This document shows, piece by piece, positions 39,625-56,434 of a DNA stretch of 64,000 nucleotides (its first letter is position 1; each line of letters starts with the position of its first letter). The position numbers and the translations under genes are program-made. The DNA is from Raja brachyura. Taxonomy: Eukaryota. Under the pieces are notes generated by a model that saw only the letters and a program-made list of their open reading frames with translations, made no database searches and was not told the DNA's origin. The stretch covers positions 18,910,001-18,974,000 of the forward strand of contig OY740786.1 of assembly GCA_963514005.1 (NCBI GenBank). The letters are read 5' to 3'.

Positions 39625-40610
39625 TGGTTAGACACAAAATGCTGGAGTAACTCAGCGGGACAGGCAGCATCTCTGGAGAGAAGGAATGGGTGACTTTTCG
39701 GGTCAAGTCAAGTTTATTCGTCACATATGAAGGGTCGAGACCCTTCTTCAGACTGATGTCAGGGGAGTGGGCGGGACAGAGATAAATGTAGTTGGAGACT
39801 GGTGGGAGGGGATTTAGAGAGAGGGAAAGCAATGGATATTTCAAGTGAGATAAGTCAATGTCCATACTGCTGGCGTGTAAGCTACCTAAGCGAAATACGA
39901 GGTGCTGTTCCTCCAATTTGCACTAGGTCTCACTCTGACAATGGAGGAGGCCCTGGACAGAAAGGTCAGATTGGGAATGGGAGGGGGAGTTAAAGTGCTG
40001 AGCAACCAGGAGATCAGGTAGGTTAAGGCGGACTGAGCGGAGGTGTTCAGCAAAACAATCGCCGAGCCTGTGCTTGGTCTCGCCGATGTACAGAAGTTGA
40101 CACCTGGAACAGCAGATACAGTAGATGAGGTTGGAGGAGGTGCAAGTGAACCCCTGACTCACCTGAAAAGACTGTTGGGGTTCTTGAATGGGGTCAAGGA
40201 GGGAGGTAATGGGACAGGTGTTGCATCTCCTGCGGTTGCAGAAGAAAGCACCTAGGGAGGGGATAGTTTGGGTGGGAAGGGACGAGCTGACCAGGGATGG
40301 AGATGGGAAGATGTGGCCAGGAGTGGGATCTCGTTGGAGGTGGCATAGTGTTGGAGGATTATATGCTGTATCCAATGACTGATGAGGTGGAAGGTGAGGA
40401 CAATGGGACTCTGTCCTTGTTGCGAATGGGGGTAGGAGGGCCAAGAGCAGAGCTGTGGAATATCAAGGAGACCCTAGTGAGAGCCTTGTCTATAATGGAA
40501 GAGGGGAACTCCCATTTCCTGAGGAATGAGGACATCTCCGATGATCTAGTATGGAAAGCCTCATCCCGGGCACAGATGTGGCATAGACAGAGGAATTGGG
40601 AGTAGTATTG
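39625..40610 (-). mobile_element. Penelope-like element 3' fragment (GIY-YIG endonuclease region and terminal repeat)
   Basis: ORF 39923-40444 has CNRRRCNTC, FTCTSSNLIYCICC and LYIGETKHRLGDCFAEH; followed by the CTGAAGAAGGGTCTCGACCC terminal motif. Confidence 0.88.
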
Positions 40611-40719
40611 GGTAGGTTATGGAAAAGCAGTAGGGGAAGTAGTTTGCAGATGGAAGTGAAATAATGACAGGGTGAGTTGATTAGAGCAGATACAATATAA
40701 GGAAGATCAGGGGGACCCT

Positions 40720-41189
40720 TGTTATACAAGGATTTTGCCCGAGCAGTCTGTGACCTAGACGCCACATCTGTAGCGCTGTGTATTGCTTTACGCGCCAGTC
40801 TGCGATTGATCCCAAAGACGAGGTGGCCTTGCTCGGATGCAGTCCCCTGCCATTGGTTATAGTTTGAATATGGGGGCAGCGCTATTGGCCACGACTTACC
40901 GGCGGTTATTTCAACAGCTGATTTCTTACCTGTGTAAAGGCAGGCTCCAGTAAGCCATAAGTTAGTTCATATACGAGAGGGGTTCACCGATGGGCTGAGT
41001 CACGATCAGCACCGCGGATGGAGGCAGAGAGATAGGGAGGTATGCTGCTGTAAAATGGACTCCGTGCATACCAAGACAAGTATTGTTTTTGTTCTCTCTC
41101 TTGCCAATAAAACTGATTTGTAACTAAACAAACGAGTGAGCTTTTTTCTGTTCTACTAGTCAGATCCTTGAACCTGTTCCCTTGCAACA
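40720..41189 (+). repeat. 5' LTR (470 bp)
   Basis: TG...CA ends; two ATTGG (reverse CCAAT) boxes; AATAAA at 41106-41111; homologous to 42209-42798. Confidence 0.9.
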
Positions 41190-41191
41190 AT

Positions 41192-41209
41192 TGGCGTAGT
41201 CGGCAGGAT
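41192..41209 (+). promoter_or_regulatory. Primer binding site complementary to the tRNA-Ser 3' end
   Basis: TGGCGTAGTCGGCAGGAT, 2 nt after the LTR CA, is the reverse complement of the vertebrate tRNA-Ser 3' end ATCCTGCCGACTACG-CCA (18 nt, from recall). Confidence 0.92.
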
Positions 41210-41228
41210 CTGACGAATAGAATAGAAA

Positions 41229-41889
41229 ATGTTTGGTAAAAAGAAATAGCAAACAAGATGGCTTGGTGCAGGCCAAGCACCCCCGCAATAAGCTGCTGCC
41301 CTCGGTACAGGGGAGCCTGCAGCTGGCCATGCTGCAGGTGGAACCAAGAACCTTGAGTCTTCAAGCTCCTCTAATGCTTTTAATGGGTAACGAGGGAGAA
41401 ATTTATTGTTGTAAATTTCACTCGAATGGATCTGTAGGATTTGAACGACTCGTATTGTTTCGGAAATATATGGCGAGTGCGATAATTATGTTACATTGAA
41501 AGGTCACAGTGGAGCAGTTCTGGAATTGCATTATAACACAAATGGCAGCATGCCTTTTCCAGCATCGAGAGACAAAATTGTAGCAGTGTGGGACTGTGAA
41601 ATGGGTGAAAGAATCAAGAGACGTCAAGGTCACATATCCTTTGTGAATTCATGTTATCCGTACAGGAAGCGACGACAAAACAGTGAAGCTATGGGACATT
41701 CGGTAGGCGGCTGCAATCCATAAGTTTCAAAACACGTACCAAGTACTGGCAGCAACGTTTAATGACACAAAGGATCAGATTTTCTCTGGTGGTATTGGAG
41801 ACGGCATTAAGGTTTGGGACCTCCCACAAAACAAGTTAATTTGGACCGTGCGTGGTCATACAGTCTCAGTGACTGGTTTGACCCTGAGT
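41229..41889 (+). pseudogene. SNRNP40: Processed, 3'-truncated retrocopy of SNRNP40 (U5 snRNP 40 kDa WD40 protein)
   Basis: Collinear peptides LQAPLMLLMGNEGEIYCCKFHSNG, YGECDNYVTLKGHSGAVLELHYNTNGS, AVWDCEMGERIKRRQGHISFVNSCYP, TGSDDKTVKLWDIR, FQNTYQVLAATFNDTKDQIFSGG, IKVWDLPQNKLIWTVRGHTVSVTGLTLS match recalled SNRNP40; no introns; frameshifts, small deletions and a stop. Confidence 0.93.
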
Positions 41890-42105
41890 GGGGTAAAAGA
41901 GAACATCACCAACCTCACTGACCACATCCAGCAAGCCAGAGAGAAGCTTCGAAGGGTCGGAGAACAGTACCACGACGACAACCCCTCGGGAGGATGGTAG
42001 CCTTTCGGGATGTTTGGAGGCTGGTGGACAACAGTGGTGCACTGGGGACTGACCATTGGGACAATCTTGTTGGCCATAATATTATGACGTTGTATATGCA
42101 GATTG
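41890..42105 (+). pseudogene. Remnant of a retroviral env TM subunit (C-terminal heptad, Trp-rich membrane-proximal region, transmembrane helix)
   Basis: Translates GVKENITNLTDHIQQAREKLRRVGEQYHDDNPSGGW*PFGMFGGWWTTVVHWGLTIGTILLAIIL*RCICR; sits just before the PPT and 3' LTR; two N-glycosylation sequons (NIT, NLT). Confidence 0.7.
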
Positions 42106-42197
42106 GCATCACGACCGCGTGGACCTCATTACATCCTGTGGGCAGGATGTAATGAGGTAACGCCTGTAGGCCGGATGTTACGGTAACCAGACTCTTC

Positions 42198-42208
42198 GAG
42201 GGGTGGAA
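42198..42208 (+). promoter_or_regulatory. Polypurine tract
   Basis: GAGGGGTGGAA immediately 5' of the TG that starts the 3' LTR. Confidence 0.8.
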
Positions 42209-42798
42209 TGTTATACGAGAATTTTGCTCAAACAGTCTGTGCCCATAGCGCTGCGGCCGGTAGCGCTATATTTAAAACTCATAGCACTGCAACCAACAGC
42301 TCTTTGCTTAAATCACCACATGCTACGCCAACAGCTTTAATGTTTTGCAAGCCAAACTGGCAGCGCAGTGTGTTTTACTTTACGTGCCAGTCTGCGGCTG
42401 ATAGCGCTCTGTTCCCAAAGGGGGGGGGGGGACTCGCGCGGATGCAGTCCCCTGCCATTGGTTATAGTTTGAATTTGGGAGCAGCGCTATTGGCCAGGAC
42501 ATACCGGCGGTTATTTCAACAGCTGATTTTTTTACCTGTATAAAGGCAGGCGCCAATAAGCCATAATTTAGTTCATGTACGAGAGGGGTTCACCGACGGG
42601 GTGAGTCGCGATCAGCACCGCAGACGGAGGCACAGAGAGAGAAAGAGACGTGTGCTGCTGTTATACGGAACCCGCGCATACCAAGCCAAGTATTGTTTTT
42701 GTTCTCTCTCTTGCCAATAAAACTGATTGTAACTAAACAGACGAGTGAGCCTTTTTCTGTTCTACTAGTCAGATCCTTGAACCTGTTCCCTTGCAACA
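42209..42798 (+). repeat. 3' LTR (590 bp)
   Basis: TG...CA ends; ATTGG boxes; TATA-like GTATAAAG near 42538; AATAAA at 42716-42721; about 120 bp more U3 sequence than the 5' LTR. Confidence 0.9.
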
Positions 42799-42931
42799 AC
42801 CATAAAGGAGGATAAGATGGCAGCTGATGTGATTACATGCCCCACAATCAATAGCACGCACAAAATACCATACACACAATCTCACTCACACTCACTCACA
42901 CTCACACACAATCACGTACACACAGACACAG

Positions 42932-43205: not shown

Positions 43206-43221
43206 ACACACAAACAAATAC

Positions 43222-43299
43222 CTGTATGAGAGTTCGGAGTGACTCCACGTAAGACTGTTCCGCATCCAGCAGGGTCATCATTACATGCTTTCTCATATC
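43222..43299 (-). CDS. ARHGEF17: ARHGEF17 coding exon (start of DH domain; likely exon 2), DMRKHVMMTLLDAEQSYVESLRTLIQ
   Basis: 78 nt, flanked by cacAG acceptor and GTattt donor on minus strand; peptide matches recalled human ARHGEF17 DMRKHVAMTLLDTEQSYVESLRTLMQ; phase 0/0. Confidence 0.93.
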
Positions 43300-46200
43300 C
43301 TGTGTGAGGGAAAAAAAAACACAATGAGGGATGGCATTAGTGAAGAGCAAGGCGGTGAGCAGTTATGCACTTCACTTTAACATGTTACCGTCTGGAAACA
43401 GTTCCATCGGTGTTATCAACACTCTATTTCCTGGCCCTATAGACCATTAACAGAATTAAACCCAGGCTGCATCAGATGGCTAGTGGTCTGCTGGGCAACG
43501 GATAATTCTCCACTATCACACAAATGGCCTTTGTCAACTGGACAGCATAGGAAATGGGGAGCTCTGCCTAATCACCCAACCCCAAGTCAATGCAATCGCA
43601 TACTGCCATTTGATATCTCCCAACTCAAACAGGTTGAGAATCAAATCTTGAACATGCCTTATCCGTATGGCTCAATTCCAAAGCAATGGGTTGGTCAACT
43701 GTGTTAGTGGAAGAAACCTTGCTCCCTCATCTCAGTCTAGCTGTAATTGAAATGTAAGTGCAACAAGAAAGAAGGATGTGAATATTACTTTTTAATAATG
43801 TGTCTGTCACTTTCCAGAAGCATACAAGAGGGTGGATGCTTATTGCTCCACCTAACTCCAGGTTTACACCAACCTGATCCCAGTATTGCAATGCACAGCA
43901 TGGGTTTCTGATCAATTATATTATCATGTTCTTTGTTCTTGAGTAACAATCAGGATAAACTGCACCAGCTCAATGCCATAATGCCAATTCTAGGATTGTC
44001 CATCCAACAGTTTTAAACTTTGGGCCTTTGCCTTTTACTTCCAGAATGTTTTTGCAGTACTTGTGCAGGTACTGCAATAGTTTTGCACATGGACATTATC
44101 CCAGATTATTCACAACATTGAGAATAATAAACCCATCTGTTAAATTCCTGATTTATTAAAACACCACCCTGAAAACTGTTCGTGCCTGTTTTTTAAAAAA
44201 TGAAAACAAATTGTCTTTTTGTTTTAATTAAAAGTTTGGCCTTAAACGAATCCTTAAATGAATCCCAAATGTTCCAATGATCATATTTTAATTCTATTGA
44301 GTTCATATGGCATATCAGCGGAACTGGATATCAAAACGGTCCAACAACATCAGAGCCAGTTGTTAATCTGTGTAATATATAAAATGATTATGAATGAATT
44401 GCTGCTTTTTCCTCTTGTGAGAACGGAATCCTTCATTCCACTCACAATATCTACAGGCAAGGTGAACAACATCACTGTGCAACAGGAGGGAGCATATAAT
44501 GGTAATATCAAATGGAATATCATTGCAAAAAAAAAACATTTAGCTCCACCTCCAAAAATTAAAGAATGAACAACTTATTTGAAGTTGACCATGACCGTCA
44601 AACTAAATACCCACTGTATCAAAAACAGGAAATGCAGAAACATTAAGCAGATCAGCTTAATCTATGTATGTGGAGAGAGAAACAGAGTCAAACTTTCTGG
44701 TCAATAACCCTTGGTCCAAATTTACTGACCTACAGATTGTTTGGGGCATTTTCTGATTTCGTAAGTTCACAAGTTCAAAAGTTATAGGAGCAGAACTAGG
44801 CCATTCAATTATGGCTGATCTATCTTTCCCTCTCAACCATACAAACACATTTTGTTTCAGATTTCCAATATCTAACTATTTTTTGTTTTAATATCCAACA
44901 TAGCACCTTATTTGAATCATACTGGCTCATCTAAGATGGAATGATTATTTTCATAGATCTGTCTCCATTTATCTGGCACAGAGGTACAGTTGCTGCCTGA
45001 CAACATCAGAGACCCAGGTGTAATGGCCTAATTCTTATTGTATGTCGCGTTGTTACTTGCGAGCGGAGCACCAAGGCAAATTCCTTGTATGTGTACATAC
45101 TTGGTCAATAAACATATTCATTCATTCATTCAGGCATTCATTCCTGACTATGGATGCCGTCTATGACTGCGAGGATTTTCTCCAGGTCCACCGGTTTCTT
45201 CCCACATCTTCAAAGACGTACGGGTTTGTAGATTAATTGTTTTTTTTATTTGTCCCGTGCGTAGGACAGAACTGGTGTACTGGTGATTGTTGGTCGGTGG
45301 AGTCCCCATGCTGTACCTCTCAATTAAACTAATTCCTGAACTGGTGTTAGGAGAACGTATACTGAATGTCAAGTTGTCTGGGGTTAAAACGGAATAGTAG
45401 ATGTTTTGTGAGAAATACTATAAATGTCCCAAAAATCAAAAAAAAATGTTGTGAATGTTGTAGCTATTGCAAATGCCTAATATTTGAGTGGTAAATAGTA
45501 TAGTAAACATTGTACTAAAAATGTCAAGGGTTATGTTTTCTGAATATTGAATATTCACAAACAAGAAAATAAGACATGGTGAGCAAAACTGGCATTTCCC
45601 CATCCCTCACCACCTTCCATTCAAATTCTATTTCCACCAACTGTTTTCTGTACGTTTTCAGAATTTAGTTTAGTTTAGAGATACAGCATGGAAGTAGGCC
45701 CTTCGGCCCACCGAGTCGACGCCTACCATCGATAACCTGCTCACACCTGTTATCCCACTTTTGCATCCAATCCCTACACACAAAGGTTAACCTACAAAGG
45801 TGCACTGGGATGTGGGAAGAAACCGGAGCACCAGGTGGAAACAAACGCGGTTACAGGGAAAAGATTGTCAGGAATTAACCTGGGTCACTGGCGCTTTAAG
45901 GCAATAACTCTACCAACTGTGCCATTGTGCTTAAAAACGCAAGCGAGTGAAGATGCTGGAATATGGACCAAATACAAATGTTTGGAGTAATTTATCGGGT
46001 CAGTCAGCATCTGGGGAGGCATGATGCAGGGTCTTGACCAGAAATGTTGATCATCCTTTTGCCTCTGCAGATGCTGCCTGACCTCCAGCAGTTTGTTTTT
46101 GGCAGAAGAGGAAAGCTCCGTAATAGACGGGAATGTTTCCAAGGGATGACAGATTAATTTTATCCAGACTATTGTGGTGAATGTCATTGTCCATATCCAA

Positions 46201-50171: not shown

Positions 50172-51161
50172 TCACTGAGGGGTGAATGTATGTTCTCGGC
50201 CTGCATCTAGCACGGCTCCTGCGAACATTCCAGGTATGGTGACGGGTTTATTATAAAACCGCTGAAAGGTGGCTTCACTGGCCCATCCCGCTGTGGCAAG
50301 TATCTGGTCCATGGGCACCTCCATGACCTTTGCCGCCGACGTAGATGCTGCCCTGGTGGAATGGGATTTAAAAACATCAGTGTCAATACCTGCCTTTTTT
50401 AAGACGATCCTGAGCCATCTGGAGATCGTCTGTGCCGTCACTCTATGGTGAGGTTTTTTGTGGCTGATGAGCAGGTATTGCTCCATTCCCCTTAATTTCC
50501 TCGTCACTTTAATATAGTGGCGGATATGGGTGGCTATGCACAGCCTAGCATCAGCGGGGTATGCTGGAAACACCAGCTGCAGCCCTGTGAATCCAGGTCT
50601 ATGCTGCTTCAGCAATTCATCAATGAAGAAAGTGACCCGCTCAGGGGTAGAGATCATCTTGTCAATATTGGCCTTGTGAAGCGTCTGCACCCTTTGTGCC
50701 GAAGTGAGCGCCATCAACATCACCAACTTCAGGGTGAGTTTGTCCAGTTCAAGCCCAGCCATGGGTGACCACGTCCTGAGTAGGGTCAGTACTTTTCCAA
50801 TATCCCAGGTGATGTTGTAACGGGGCCTTGGCGGGTTGGAATTAAATATTCCCCGCATCAGCTTGGAGACCAGTTTGTTAGATCCTACCTCAATATTGAG
50901 GTAGGATGATAGGGCACTCCTGGCGCTATTGATGGCACTGTAACTGAGATGTTCATCATGGTGTAGCCCCGCAAGAAATTCCAGCACGTCTGTGATGGAG
51001 ACGGAGTCATATGCAATGTCCAGGCGGCCGCAATAGGTTTCCCATTTCCTGATGTGCGATAAGTATTGCCGTCTTGAGGACTCCCTGCATGATGCTCCCA
51101 TGGTATCCATTGTCCTTGATGATAGACCATACTGTAGTAATGGTCTGTTCAAATCCTGCAA
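50172..51161 (-). CDS. DIRS tyrosine recombinase (integrase)
   Basis: 329-aa ORF with catalytic R (SAQRV), HSTR, GW and FQRFY motifs; overlaps the end of the MT domain. Confidence 0.95.
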   Translation of the reverse strand: MQDLNRPLLQYGLSSRTMDTMGASCRESSRRQYLSHIRKWETYCGRLDIAYDSVSITDVLEFLAGLHHDEHLSYSAINSARSALSSYLNIEVGSNKLVSKLMRGIFNSNPPRPRYNITWDIGKVLTLLRTWSPMAGLELDKLTLKLVMLMALTSAQRVQTLHKANIDKMISTPERVTFFIDELLKQHRPGFTGLQLVFPAYPADARLCIATHIRHYIKVTRKLRGMEQYLLISHKKPHHRVTAQTISRWLRIVLKKAGIDTDVFKSHSTRAASTSAAKVMEVPMDQILATAGWASEATFQRFYNKPVTIPGMFAGAVLDAGREHTFTPQ

Positions 51162-51380
51162 GCCAATAGATTCAAGTGACTATAGCAGGGGTGTGGTTTC
51201 CCTGTGACAGGGTTCGTCACCAATTGTGGGCAACCCTCTAAGAGGACCCATGGTTGACTTATCATTCCAAGGACCACCGGATACCATGACTGCGTAGGCC
51301 AGTCGGGTATGATAAGGATGCCCTTAGCAGCATCGAGCTGGATTTTCCGCAATACCCGACTGATGAGGCAAAATGGAGGA
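51149..51380 (-). CDS. C-terminal part of the DIRS N6-adenine methyltransferase-like domain, frameshifted from ORF2
   Basis: PPFCLISRVLRKIQ...ILIIPDWPTQSWYP...LLACRI continues the canonical YAFPPF motif if one C is restored near 51378-51380. Confidence 0.85.
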
Positions 51381-53157
51381 ATGCATAGAAAAACCATTTC
51401 CCCCAATCTAGCGAGAACGCGTCCATCGCCATTGCCCCAGGATCTGGTTCCCATGATGCGTATGTTGGTACCTGATGGTTCAACCGTGACGCAAAAAGGT
51501 CAATATCCGGTTTACCAAATTTGGCTGTAATTTTGGTGAATATTTGGGAGTTCAACATCCACTCGATGTTGTCATTAAATTTCCGTGACCTGGTGTCCGC
51601 CACTGTGTTGAGCTTACCTGGTAAGAAGGTAGCTGAGATCCAAATATTCCGTTGAATACACCAGAGCCAAATTGTATTTGCCAATTCATCGCATGAAATT
51701 GACCTGGTACCGCCCATATGATTCAGATATGCCACCGCAGTGGTGTTGTCTATTTGGAGACGGACATGAGTGTCAGTAATGTTTGAACAATAAGCTCTTA
51801 GTCCGTGGAATGCTCCCAGCATCTCCAAATAGTTTATCCCCTGTGCTGACAACAGAGTAGCTTCAAGTGAGTCCCATCTACCTCCACAACTGGTGTTGTT
51901 GTCCGTAGCTCCCCAGCCATGGGAGCTTGCGTCTGTTTGTAAGTATACCACCGGACGAGGCACAATGATGGGTTTGAATGAGTTATGGATATTGCCAATC
52001 CACCATTGCAACTCAATTTTTGCCTTGAGCGGCAGCTGCATAGGTCTATCAAAATGTCCAGCATTTGATTTTAATGCTGCTATTTTTGATCTTTGCAAAT
52101 TTTGATAATGTAAAGGTCCAAATTGAGCAGCTGGAAAGACTGCTACAATTTTCCCAATTACCTTGGCAGTTTGTCTAATTGACGGTATTCTGGCGCAGAC
52201 CAGATTCTTACATGCTTGAAACACATCCCCAACTTTATTAGTTGGTATGGTGGTGATCATGCGATTGGCGTCTACCGTGAACCCCAGGTAGTCCATGATC
52301 TGTGCGGGGAAGAACTTTGATTTGTCTGGATGGATAATAAATCCCATTTTTTGAAAAATGTCCACTGTGGCTGAAACTGCCAATTCTGCTGACTCCAGTG
52401 TATGTCCAATTATCAGAATGTCATCCAAATAAGCCATGACCGTATGATTTTGCCTCCTTAGTGTAGCTAGTACTGGCTTGAGTAGTTTAGTGAACAGTCT
52501 GGGGGCTGTGGTATGCCCATTGGGTAATGCTTTGTATTGCCAAAGCTGATCCATCCAGATAAACTTCAAGAACTTTCTGTGATGTTTCCGAATGGATACT
52601 GAATAGTATGCATCTTTTAAATCAATGCATGCCATGAAGCAGCCCTTCGAAATCAAAGATTTGGCTGTTTCGAACGTGTCCATTTTGAAATGAGTATATT
52701 TTACAAAGGTATTCAAGTGAGTTAAATCTATAATGACCCGACATCCACCATCTTTTTTGGTTTTAGTAAATATATTAGATACGAATTCAATTGGTTCATG
52801 TGTGGTTCTTTCTATCACCCCTTTCTCTTGTAATCTCAAGATTTCAGCATAGCCTTCTGCTGATTCCTTTTTGGAAAGTGCAAATTTGCGATTTGGCATA
52901 TGCTGAGGTGGAGGCAATTGGCCATTAATAAACTCAATTTCATAACCCTGAATACTTTGTAAGATAAACTCATCTGAGGTGATGGTTTCCCATGCCTCCT
53001 TAAATCCCCGTAGTCTGCCCCCAACCTGTGAGGTTAGACATGCAAGTGCATGGAATCCAGACCGCCTTACCTTCATGGTTATCGGTGGTCCCTGATATGT
53101 TTGGTGGGACGTGGAGGTGCTGGGTTGCGTTGTTGATGTGGAGTCCGCATTTTCCAT
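51262..53157 (-). CDS. DIRS ORF2: reverse transcriptase, RNase H and start of the Dam-like methyltransferase
   Basis: VGGRL, IDLKDAY, YLDD (RT); TDAS, INYLE, IDNTTAVAY, PGKLNTVAD (RNase H); DLFASRLNHQ (MT); leaves the MT frame after FYAF. Confidence 0.95.
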   Translation of the reverse strand: MENADSTSTTQPSTSTSHQTYQGPPITMKVRRSGFHALACLTSQVGGRLRGFKEAWETITSDEFILQSIQGYEIEFINGQLPPPQHMPNRKFALSKKESAEGYAEILRLQEKGVIERTTHEPIEFVSNIFTKTKKDGGCRVIIDLTHLNTFVKYTHFKMDTFETAKSLISKGCFMACIDLKDAYYSVSIRKHHRKFLKFIWMDQLWQYKALPNGHTTAPRLFTKLLKPVLATLRRQNHTVMAYLDDILIIGHTLESAELAVSATVDIFQKMGFIIHPDKSKFFPAQIMDYLGFTVDANRMITTIPTNKVGDVFQACKNLVCARIPSIRQTAKVIGKIVAVFPAAQFGPLHYQNLQRSKIAALKSNAGHFDRPMQLPLKAKIELQWWIGNIHNSFKPIIVPRPVVYLQTDASSHGWGATDNNTSCGGRWDSLEATLLSAQGINYLEMLGAFHGLRAYCSNITDTHVRLQIDNTTAVAYLNHMGGTRSISCDELANTIWLWCIQRNIWISATFLPGKLNTVADTRSRKFNDNIEWMLNSQIFTKITAKFGKPDIDLFASRLNHQVPTYASWEPDPGAMAMDAFSLDWGKWFFYAFLHFASSVGYCGKSSSMLLRASLSYPTGLRSHGIRWSLE

Positions 53158-54845
53158 GCTGGCCGCTGAGGGCCTAGTCCTAAAAAAGGCCTGGGCTGAG
53201 GAGGCTGTCGATATTGAGGAGGCGCCGGAATGTAGGTCCTTGCTGGCCTGTCGGTTTGACCTCGCGGCCTAAAATAAGGTGTTTTCTTGGCCGGAAGTCT
53301 GGTCACAGTATGTGATCTCATCAGACCCACTGTTTTAGCATGGTCATCTAGGTCTTTGACCTGCTTCGGGAGGTCTTCTCCGAACAGCTGTCTGGGTGGT
53401 GGTGTAGGAGGTGCTCTGCATAGTCCCGCAAATTTGGGGTTCAATGAAGGTTTAATTATGCTTTTCCTGAAAGCGTTGATTTCGTACTGCGTATTACAAA
53501 GCAGTGCTAGAGCATCCTCCTGTTCGGTGTTTAAATCAACTCCGTCCACTGACCTTGCAAAAGCGGTAATCCCAGACGTAAGTAGTTTCAGGATTCTCTG
53601 CAGTTTCACTTCCTGCGCTCTGATGCCCGGGCTGATATTGCCCCAGATTGGCATGTTTACAATCGGCACGTTGAGTGAATTGCAATTTCCTGGAGCCTTG
53701 TGTCTTTCCATGGCCTTCGCAAGGACCTCCTCCTGTAGCTGGTGGTTCGTGAGGTAATCTATGGTCGCGGCCAGTTTAGTGTTGAGGGGTTGTCCTGAAG
53801 ATACGGGTAACCCGAACTTGGCTGCCACATCCAGGAGCTCTTCCTGGGGGACCTCAGGTACTGCTGGGGCATGTACCAGGATCTCCTCCTCTTCTGGCCT
53901 CATGCTGTCCATAGATGGTGATGGGGATATGTCCATAAGTCCCCTGGAACTGTGAGCGTCCTGTCTTTGATTTAGTAGGACTTGTTCCAATATCCTCTCC
54001 ATACGGTCCAAGCGCCCTTCATCGTGCATGTATGGGCGGTTAGAGTCCTCATGCCTGAAGGAACTACTGAGGCTCCCGTCGTCGGCCCGTACCTCGTCGA
54101 GGTAATATCGGTGCCGTGACGATGTGTCGCTACCAGCCGCCTCGGCGAAGCTGAGCGATTCCCACGCGGATCTGCTCAAGCGCCTCCTTTTCGCTGAGCT
54201 GCATCCGGCTGCCTCTGAGGGCATAGGTGGGGAGAGGTCGGCACCCAACGCCGCAGCGTGGTGACCCGACATCCGCGCGGGCTTGCCGACTGTCCTTGAT
54301 CTGGACCCAGACGGCGTACGGTCCCGACCCGCCCCCAGCGGGGGAAGCGGTGACCGTGACGAGACTCCACCCGCGTGACTCCTCCTGGTCCCCCTGGGTG
54401 GTGAGTCCATGCTGGCCCTCCTTGGTCTGCCAGTGGATTCGGGTCTCGCCGATTCACCAGACCACATTCTGGTGGCTCCTGATGAGACCTCAGCCCTAGA
54501 AGGGCTAGGTAGTCGAGCTCTATCCCTGGTTCCTTCGAGAGGGCTCAGGGAGAAGGGCCGTGCGGCAGCACGCGGGTCCCTTTTGCTCGTCTCCGCCAAT
54601 GACCCAGTGGGTGACAGAGAAATGGAGTCAGGGTGCCCCTGCTCCGGCGCTGTACCGAGTTCTTGCTCTGCGGGACCCCCGCTAGAGCACAGCTGCGTCG
54701 GTGAACCGGGTCCTGTGATAACAGGGCTCCCCGATTTGCGCGCCTTTTTCCCGGCCCGTCCTACCGCTGTAGACGGGAACTCCGGGATGGGTGGCCGGCA
54801 ACTCCTTCCAGAAGTTCTGCGGCCCTTACTCCTTTTTACGTCCAT
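53079..54845 (-). CDS. DIRS ORF1 (gag-like), 588 aa from the ATG at 54845
   Basis: Uninterrupted ORF; S/P/R-rich N-terminus and a more conserved-looking C-terminal region (P.NC..L.VP.VN..IW; LFG.DL...VK); first ORF of the element. Confidence 0.85.
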   Translation of the reverse strand: MDVKRSKGRRTSGRSCRPPIPEFPSTAVGRAGKKARKSGSPVITGPGSPTQLCSSGGPAEQELGTAPEQGHPDSISLSPTGSLAETSKRDPRAAARPFSLSPLEGTRDRARLPSPSRAEVSSGATRMWSGESARPESTGRPRRASMDSPPRGTRRSHAGGVSSRSPLPPLGAGRDRTPSGSRSRTVGKPARMSGHHAAALGADLSPPMPSEAAGCSSAKRRRLSRSAWESLSFAEAAGSDTSSRHRYYLDEVRADDGSLSSSFRHEDSNRPYMHDEGRLDRMERILEQVLLNQRQDAHSSRGLMDISPSPSMDSMRPEEEEILVHAPAVPEVPQEELLDVAAKFGLPVSSGQPLNTKLAATIDYLTNHQLQEEVLAKAMERHKAPGNCNSLNVPIVNMPIWGNISPGIRAQEVKLQRILKLLTSGITAFARSVDGVDLNTEQEDALALLCNTQYEINAFRKSIIKPSLNPKFAGLCRAPPTPPPRQLFGEDLPKQVKDLDDHAKTVGLMRSHTVTRLPAKKTPYFRPRGQTDRPARTYIPAPPQYRQPPQPRPFLGLGPQRPAWKMRTPHQQRNPAPPRPTKHIRDHR

Positions 54846-56434
54846 GTCCCTGTGGGAGAAAACACAATTACTCACACAGGACAACCAACTCAAGGTTGTC
54901 TATACTTACCTGAGTGGCCCTTATGAAGGGCTGGTGGTGAGCCGCGCTCCTCTCCAGCCGTCGGCTGCAATGCGAGCGACGATATGTCGCGCATGCTTGC
55001 TGGCGGGTTCTTCACGAAGTCACTCACGTGACTCCGAAATGAAATTACTTCAGAATTGGCTACAAATACAAAGTCAATGTGTACAAAATTTTGCCTAATG
55101 ATGTTATAAAACACCAATCAAAAGTAATAGCGATTTATATTAGTAAGACTGGCTGCAACCCATGCTATCAGTCAAAGAAACTGCCAAAGAAATTACTTAA
55201 TTTTCAGCCAGGCTGCCCAACTGGAACAATGTAGACTACGGCTAGTAGCTGGCACCATCGAGAAGCCCAGGTTTTGGGGTGCAGCTAAGCTGCCTGTTGT
55301 AGGCAGATGGGGTTCTTGTGCATTTTTAAATCGTGGCTCCTGATGCTGTAATTTGGGGCCCTGTGTTGTTTTACATCAGAAATGCATAAATCCTGTAGAG
55401 ATTCGGAGCCACCATTAAAACCTGGTAGCAATCGGGATCAGAACGGGCAAGTACAGATAAAGAAGAATTTTAAGGTCTAACATGTCAGCCAGGGGATGTT
55501 CAAATGGGCATCCCAGAAGCACAATAATCTCCCTCTTCCCTGGCCTTGATGGTCAAGAACACTGCCAAACGTTCACCCCATTTGGGACATTTCCTTGGCT
55601 TTCTGGTCGCAATTTAACTTTCCTTTCCACATTTCCACATGGGGCAGTATTTAATATTTAATCAATGGAGTCAAAATTGTCCAAGCAATAGACAATAGAC
55701 AATAGACAATAGACAATAGGTGCAGGAGCCACGCATTAGCGCTATTACTGGCTCCATTATTTGACACATCATGGTCTTGATTGTGGTTAAAAGCAGTCTG
55801 GTGTTTTAGTGAATGGCCAATATAGGAATTATGCTGTTCTAACCGCATGTAACCCCCCCATTCACGTCAGATAGAATCCCTTTCTAATCTGCGTACAAAC
55901 AGCTGAAGATCTGTGCTGTCCAAAGCCCAAAGGAACAGCTTGTCATCTGTCTTTTTGTGTGATGTTCAGACATAGTCACCATTAACATCAGATAATTATA
56001 AGCCACCAATGTGGGAAGCATTGAATCACATCCTAGATTAATAATTATCCACTGTGACTGAGGTTAGAGACTCAATGAAAATCAAAAGCATTGTGGAGTG
56101 CACAAAGCAGGAATTTTGCAATTTCTGCTGCCTTTATATTTAGAACCACTTCAAAGGAAGTCATTCAGTAATAGGCTGGGATTCCTCCTGATGTTTATTC
56201 CCACTTCACTGCTGCACCTAGTTGTCAGATCTTCTGCAATCACCAAACAGTAACATGCCTGCTACTTGACACCAAAGACAGGACTGGGTGCCAACAGGAG
56301 AGTGATTGCTTAGTGGTCCAAAAAATAATGGCTTTGCTTTGGCTGTTTTTCATCTGAAATTACCACGGCTCTTGTATTGGGAGACATAATAGAGAATGAT
56401 CTATTCTCTAGCATGGATTATTTGCAAGCTATTG

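Follow-up and report, generated by a model that had tools for sequence, protein, structure and literature searches.

A spliced SNRNP40 transcript carried by a multi-copy, non-autonomous endogenous retrovirus offshoot in the skate Raja brachyura

Acutely transforming retroviruses share a common layout, in which an LTR, a primer-binding site (PBS) and the start of gag are followed by a host coding sequence (CDS), a tail of env, a polypurine tract (PPT) and a second LTR, and they are helper-dependent. Captured genes of this kind include v-src and v-kit (named in Chong 2014, PMC4299795). Endogenous retroviruses (ERVs) have been shown to capture host transcripts in a similar way. In the LTR-mediated retrocopies described from metazoans by Tan 2016 (PMC5131818), a partial mRNA replaces the internal open reading frames (ORFs) between two LTRs, the joins show microsimilarity, there is neither a poly(A) tail nor a target-site duplication (TSD) belonging to the insert itself, and the chimera can go on to retropose non-autonomously. 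When HERV-K captured FAM8A1, the host mRNA had likewise been spliced, and the joins show microsimilarity (Jamain et al. 2001, as cited in PMC5131818). Multi-copy captures have been described in crocodilians, namely CrocERV31 with nectin3 and CrocERV29 with KIT ligand, which are present in six and nine copies and have near-complete ORFs under purifying selection (Chong 2014, PMC4299795). The kind of event that we describe here is already in print, and the present case stands out for its copy number and for the completeness of its record. No SNRNP40-carrying ERV, and no such capture in an elasmobranch, was found in the literature searches, and a repeat-library entry may exist.

The window analysed here is a stretch of 64,000 nt from Raja brachyura (assembly GCA_963514005.1, contig OY740786.1, positions 18,910,001 to 18,974,000 of the forward strand). 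A sequence-only reading had proposed that an ERV within it carries the spliceosomal host mRNA SNRNP40 in place of gag and pol. All of the parts that it named (TSD, LTR, PBS, SNRNP40, env, PPT and LTR) are present at 40720-42798 (Table 1), and the element is almost certainly a dead copy of a non-autonomous ERV offshoot carrying spliced SNRNP40. The LTRs are direct repeats that share one TSD, and their divergence is 9.6% over 417 aligned sites. Some details of the layout were amended: a viral stretch does follow the PBS, but it is 46 nt long instead of the supposed 20 or so and includes the gag start; the SNRNP40 piece does begin near the start of the CDS, more precisely at codon 10/11, and it ends inside exon 6; the env-like remnant is indeed env, but consists of two env pieces fused together, and the PPT after it is short. 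The 150-nt deletion between these two pieces took out the ISD and CX6CC. A Pfam search with the 36-aa env piece of the window gave no match, and its identity as env comes from relatives.

The assignment of the PBS to tRNA-Ser was borne out, as it complements the tRNA-Ser(AGA) of the same genome. The PBS pattern has 13 exact matches in the Raja brachyura genome (control 0), and 6/6 of the fetched loci with the pattern were called tRNA-Ser(aga). Used as a search for copies of the element, the exact PBS pattern gave 10 matches only, being too strict for old copies. The U5-leader stem is predicted with z = -3.4 in the window and z = -1.8 in one sister provirus lacking the insert, and a fold of -20 kcal/mol or lower was obtained for 49 of 59 copies, a count made without a shuffle control. 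This predicted pairing may be the reason for the length of leader that was retained. Within the env tail, 42123-42158 forms a near-perfect 16-bp hairpin (z = -7.8); it was rejected as a feature of the family, being equally strong in only 6 of 56 copies and absent from two sisters, and may have arisen when a local template switch evened out an imperfect palindrome.

Table 1. Features of the SNRNP40-carrying element in the window.
Feature	Positions	Strand	Remarks
Left TSD ACCCT	40715..40719	+	4/5 identical to right copy ACCAT
5' LTR, TG...CA	40720..41189	+	AATAAA at 41106-41111; about 120 nt of U3 in 3' LTR absent here
Predicted U5-leader stem enclosing PBS	41144..41229	+	About 41144-41168 pairs with 41205-41229; inverted match, fold
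PBS for tRNA-Ser(AGA)	41192..41209	+	Complementary to tRNA 3' end
Viral leader and first gag codons, 46 nt	41210..41255	+	ATG 41229-41231, stop 41247-41249
Spliced SNRNP40 CDS nt 29-707 (exons 1-6)	41256..41891	+	Met11 codon at 41258
Host/env look-alike at 3' capture join, 11 nt	41881..41891	+	A/T-L-S-G encoded on both sides, one frame
Gamma-type env TM remnant	41881..42186	+	Lacks 150 nt internally, ends joined at AGAG (41898-41901); stops 41998, 42085
Short polypurine tract, one T	42198..42208	+	Abuts 3' LTR
3' LTR, TG...CA	42209..42798	+	AATAAA at 42716-42721
Right TSD ACCAT	42799..42803	+	One mismatch vs ACCCT

Three neighbouring features were also noted in the window. A probable exon at 43213-43302 (minus strand) would code for the first part of the DH domain in a RhoGEF protein (Pfam E 0.02, with a weak Dbs match) and presumably resembles ARHGEF17; if this exon is real, the element would lie antisense in an intron of a RhoGEF gene, approximately 420 nt from it. 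The left flank at 39923-40462 (minus strand) has a Penelope-type look, and its motif, for which Pfam returned no match, is one that we take to be a remnant of a GIY-YIG endonuclease. Long overlapping ORFs at 50172-54899 (minus strand), which are gag-like, RT/RNase H and tyrosine recombinase-like, presumably belong to an apparently young DIRS-type retrotransposon.

The identity of the cargo was established by comparison with known proteins and with the genome's own gene. PDB searches with three pieces of the frame gave U5-40K/SNRNP40 as the best natural match for all three (E 6e-42, 8e-29 and 5e-13), with two designed WD40 proteins placed slightly above it for the first piece only, and the homolog search returned one protein, the SNRNP40 of the thorny skate (P0001). 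The parent gene, SNRNP40 of Raja brachyura, comprises ten exons at G000:C31:31935826-31955335, on a contig other than that of the window, and its residues 1-300 are identical to P0001. The insert shows 82% DNA identity (gaps counted) to the corresponding stretch of this gene and crosses five exon joins, at 41340, 41455, 41548, 41688 and 41811, without introns; it is thus the intronless copy of an intron-bearing parent that had been supposed. The host piece starts just before Met11, and the last 341 nt of the SNRNP40 CDS are absent from it. In the window, deletions near 41264 (1 nt), 41433 (12 nt), 41467 (1 nt) and 41660 (26 nt) disrupt it, and 3 nt near 41346 are absent here and likewise in most copies.

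The guess that the element belongs to a multi-copy family proved right, as the SNRNP40 insert was found at 79 or more distinct loci among the loci fetched, a lower bound from which L049 was left out as a duplicate of L082. In the DNA search 40 of 113 candidates were scored and 40/40 match, and the protein search gave 77 matches, the parent's exons included. Among the 79 copies an LTR adjoins the insert on the 5' side in 62, on the 3' side in 65, on both sides in 51 and on neither in three, and the leader is retained in 61. Immediately ahead of the PPT, some copies have a 28-nt unit in tandem, up to approximately 10 times (L058:8675-9002; L088:1279-1391).

Of the 44 copies that retain the gag start codon in the leader, 31 have its frame closed by a stop no more than nine codons on. 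From the gag start to the env TM the helper sequence is replaced by the insert and not split by it, some 5 kb being absent there, which agrees with the original claim that gag and pol had been replaced. At the 3' join, an 11-mer of exon 6 matches the env of insert-free relatives at 9/11 positions in four relatives and at 8/11 in another four; five bases of this look-alike are exact, and host and env are in the same frame. The two mismatches between host and env fall on third positions of codons. Random host/helper joins reach 9/11 in 0.12% (a figure computed after the joins were seen). At the 5' join, approximately 1 nt is common to host and virus in what are old, decayed sequences, so that a template switch at this end is something we only infer. 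The same 5' join is found in most of the 61 leader-bearing copies. Five copies have env running uninterrupted from the 3' join, and 57 of the 79 have the main, short-env form with the further 150-nt deletion at AGAG; of the others, 14 were not scorable, two have another join and one is a recombinant with pol. This last copy, L071 (G000:C2, near 33.92 Mb), agrees with the others in its 5' part, exits the host piece at CDS nt ~305 and continues into pol, integrase and env. Its switch point is an exact 8-mer common to the host and two sister pol copies, a length that random joins reach in 0.014% (again computed after the fact). This single copy is best read as a recombinant of chimera and helper RNA, and hence as a probable fossil sign of co-packaging, and it could instead be an early side product.

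Any account of the family has to accommodate its anatomy, the parent gene, the loss of introns, the one common pair of joins, the separate TSDs and the sister proviruses, all of which are observed. We consider it likely that there was a single capture by two switches of reverse transcriptase (RT), followed by copying in trans, by a class III-like parent, to at least 79 sites. Minus-strand synthesis would have passed from env to a co-packaged SNRNP40 mRNA at the 11-nt look-alike, and the return switch would have taken place in the GC-rich exon 1, just past the gag start, with the LTRs, PBS, U5-leader stem and PPT being retained. The longer-env form would then have spread (five copies), the 150-nt env deletion would have produced the main form (57 copies), further deletions would have led to the subfamilies, and one copy would have recombined back into helper pol. 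As inner support in the tree is weak, the proposed order of the steps from the spread of the longer-env form to the subfamilies is taken from the nested deletions and not from the tree. Later deletions are common to unlinked copies (D2 in 14, D1 in eight and D3 in four of the 79), showing that copying went through several rounds.

An unlikely but credible alternative is read-through, the classic model of oncogene capture. A provirus in or just before exon 1 would have undergone a DNA deletion that fused the gag start to exon 1, and the LTR-driven transcript would have been spliced and packaged, leaving only the 3' join to be made by an RT switch, after which the family would have spread as in the two-switch account. 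The 5' join suits this account in that it lies within exon 1, adjoining the promoter, and is nearly without microhomology, compared with 9/11 at the 3' join. However, two additional rare DNA events are required, and the 50 kb around the parent SNRNP40 hold no LTR, leader or env match, although such an allele need not have fixed. Joins without microsimilarity are also known from template switching, at 4 of the 29 switch joins reported in Tan 2016 (PMC5131818).

Whether the cargo was of use can be judged from its reading frame and its pattern of change. The reading frame runs on from the host piece into env, the 150-nt env deletion leaves it intact, and 21 of the 22 copies scored have lost 3 nt where exons 1 and 2 meet. 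These three shared frame-keeping events, for which the chance is about 1 in 27 (counted after the fact), speak for selection of the chimera as an oncogene- or accessory-like protein, in which SNRNP40 from Met11 is in frame with the env membrane anchor. We regard such selection as improbable. Private changes have a pN/pS of 0.81-0.83 against a neutral expectation of 0.74 derived from the observed base-change spectrum. Changes common to five copies have a corrected pS of 0.097 and a pN of 0.012; if host drift made up ~0.08 of pS, the stem ratio is ~0.7 (with equal rates assumed, few changes and low power), and the shared changes are therefore read as neutral. Among the 29 copies scored there is no long open frame from Met11, the longest being 90 codons, and none has an intact captured ORF under selection; the captured piece itself is an incomplete propeller. 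Moreover, the D2 subfamily (14 copies) exits the TM frame and the D1 subfamily (eight copies) lost much of the WD40 part, and both spread anyway at a later stage. The cargo was probably a passenger. The likeness to acutely transducing retroviruses that had been drawn from the window copy was overstated: it would mean that the cargo functioned and was selected for, yet selection left no sign that we could find. The wider proposal, that a membrane-anchored SNRNP40-env fusion aided early germ-line spread of a fossil transducing retrovirus of skates, appears equally improbable; if true, a splicing gene would have been captured in the manner of a v-onc and become fixed in at least 79 copies across several skate lineages.

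It is established that intronless copies in vertebrates are usually LINE-made, and LINE-like remnants do lie within the window. Nevertheless, it is very improbable that a LINE-made processed pseudogene was inserted into an existing provirus and that viral and host deletions followed: a run of ten or more A residues after the host piece occurs in 0/79 copies, in agreement with the poly(A)-free end first noticed in the window, and there is no TSD around the insert. In addition to the loss of the CDS end, the missing helper sequence is absent exactly at the insert, and the 3' join falls on the look-alike. Internal ORFs replaced between LTRs, microsimilarity at the 3' join and an insert free of poly(A) or its own TSD are together the features of an LTR-mediated retrocopy.

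Both ends could be defined in 17 copies, of which 11 are flanked by a 5-bp TSD that is exact (five copies) or has a single mismatch, while the other six have two or more mismatches and no clean 5-bp TSD. The left 5-mers differ in 17/17, and a TSD-grade match was found in 0/272 cross pairs. Given these separate TSDs and different 5-mers, the copies are separate integrations. Multiplication of one chimera by segmental duplication in place of retrotransposition is refuted for the family as a whole by the 17 differing TSD 5-mers, flanks that the 17 complete copies do not share in register and the distribution of copies over more than 25 contigs, leaving it a vanishingly small probability, although it may apply to single copy pairs. 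One such pair, L039 and L040 (G000:C16:1.227 and 1.242 Mb), sits on a single contig with 15 kb between its two copies; these resemble each other, also in their 3' flanks, and are likely a local duplication.

[quoted passage not shown] They were found by searches with the env tail (150 of 310 candidates scored), upstream env, a pol piece and gag. The same leader continues into gag in 11 of the 23 sister stretches examined, and the sister at G000:C30:13373386-13379954 holds remnants of all genes, in order. Natural ORFs in the sisters match retroviral protease (L079, E 1.6e-6) and an RNase H-like domain (L121); on L124 the RT match is weak (3e-4), as is the integrase match; TLV_coat matches lie on the relatives L041 and L045; and most of the sister ORFs scanned gave no domain match. 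RT-core motifs are present in 3 of the 11 sisters scored. A deletion of the RT core is apparently common to the insert-free sisters L072, L079, L076, L063 and L077, and the parent family therefore apparently includes at least one further non-autonomous branch. The sisters carry env, and spread between cells by means of helper env would fit them as well as copying within germ cells.

Several candidates were set aside as helpers. L050, L056 and L057 have 49-60% identity in the env tail but are without the LTR of the element and belong to other families, as do L125-L130, and an MLVIN_C match on L048 lies ~5 kb upstream of env and was not assigned to the family of the SNRNP40 element. Two of these other ERV families, seen at L128:about 6060 (minus strand) and L129:1804 (plus strand), share the tRNA-Ser PBS with the element and resemble it in the gag start and, at ~70% identity, in pol, with different LTRs.

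An ERV-S/class III-like helper had been suggested for the window copy, and HERV-S is linked to tRNA-Ser. The insert-free relatives contain both an ISD and CX6CC, and their env is therefore gamma-type as defined in bioRxiv 10.1101/2021.11.23.469661. A 5-bp TSD is given as the rule for class III, and ERV4 has a 5-bp TSD too (PMC4299795); class III elements with a class I env exist, an example being HERV-S (PMC4724089). The parent family is like these in its gamma-type env, 5-bp TSD and Ser PBS. The RT-connection piece has 59% identity to a stingray protein and 48% to P0003, a Pol with a dUTPase after the integrase. The pol of the parent family is nearest to this dUTPase-bearing Pol. The parent may belong to ERV-S, to another ERV3 group or to ERV4. 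A class III-like parent virus would fit the 5-bp TSD, the Ser PBS, the pol and the class I-type env of the family.

The family is old and is shared with other organisms. The median divergence of LTR pairs in 38 copies is 14.8% (range 8-19%), and among 51 copies with at least 500 nt the copy-to-host distance is 11.6%, calculated from only nt 1-748 of the parent CDS, and the copy-to-copy distance 14.0%. The tree, built from the 51 of 79 copies that retain 500 or more of 675 nt, is star-like and does not resolve the subfamilies. These distances and the shape of the tree fit a burst of copying soon after capture, and at an assumed 1-3 x 10^-9 per site per year the age is ~27-82 million years. At least part of the element stretch is held by 20 of 21 sequencing runs (six organisms, 9 studies), and five other organisms carry the family. 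None of the runs holding it was listed as RNA, and run X19 may be RNA. In organisms D, E and F there are contigs spanning both chimeric joins, and in B the 5' join is spanned. In organism C a contig leaves the left flank and continues for 36 nt of LTR sequence, and the window insertion is therefore common to C; that of organism B ends 29 nt into the LTR, below the 31-nt rule.

One genome thus holds an unusually complete fossil record, comprising the parent gene, the virus, the joins, early and later forms and a back-recombinant. It shows that a captured housekeeping mRNA can become highly multiplied without any visible advantage, and can serve as a control for the claim that cargo has to be useful. 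On the practical side, gene annotation and read mapping in skates can be misled by the ~80 SNRNP40 pseudocopies, whose sites of insertion offer skate phylogeny presence/absence markers.

Set beside the known systems, the SNRNP40 element differs from acutely transforming retroviruses in that these carry an intact, selected oncogene, whereas every SNRNP40 copy scored is broken and its changes look neutral. HERV-K/FAM8A1 left a processed pseudogene and, unlike the present case, involved a class II helper in primates (PMC5131818). The CrocERV captures resemble the skate family in being carried by an old ERV that spread after capture, occurs in several species and has a 5-bp TSD (ERV3/ERV4); their cargo replaces env or is added, whereas the SNRNP40 cargo is partial, replaces gag-pol and gives no sign of selection (PMC4299795). 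The retrocopies of Tan 2016 are alike in anatomy and mechanism (PMC5131818), and what sets the SNRNP40 element apart from them is its 79 or more copies, its nested subfamilies, its back-recombinant and its occurrence in a cartilaginous fish.
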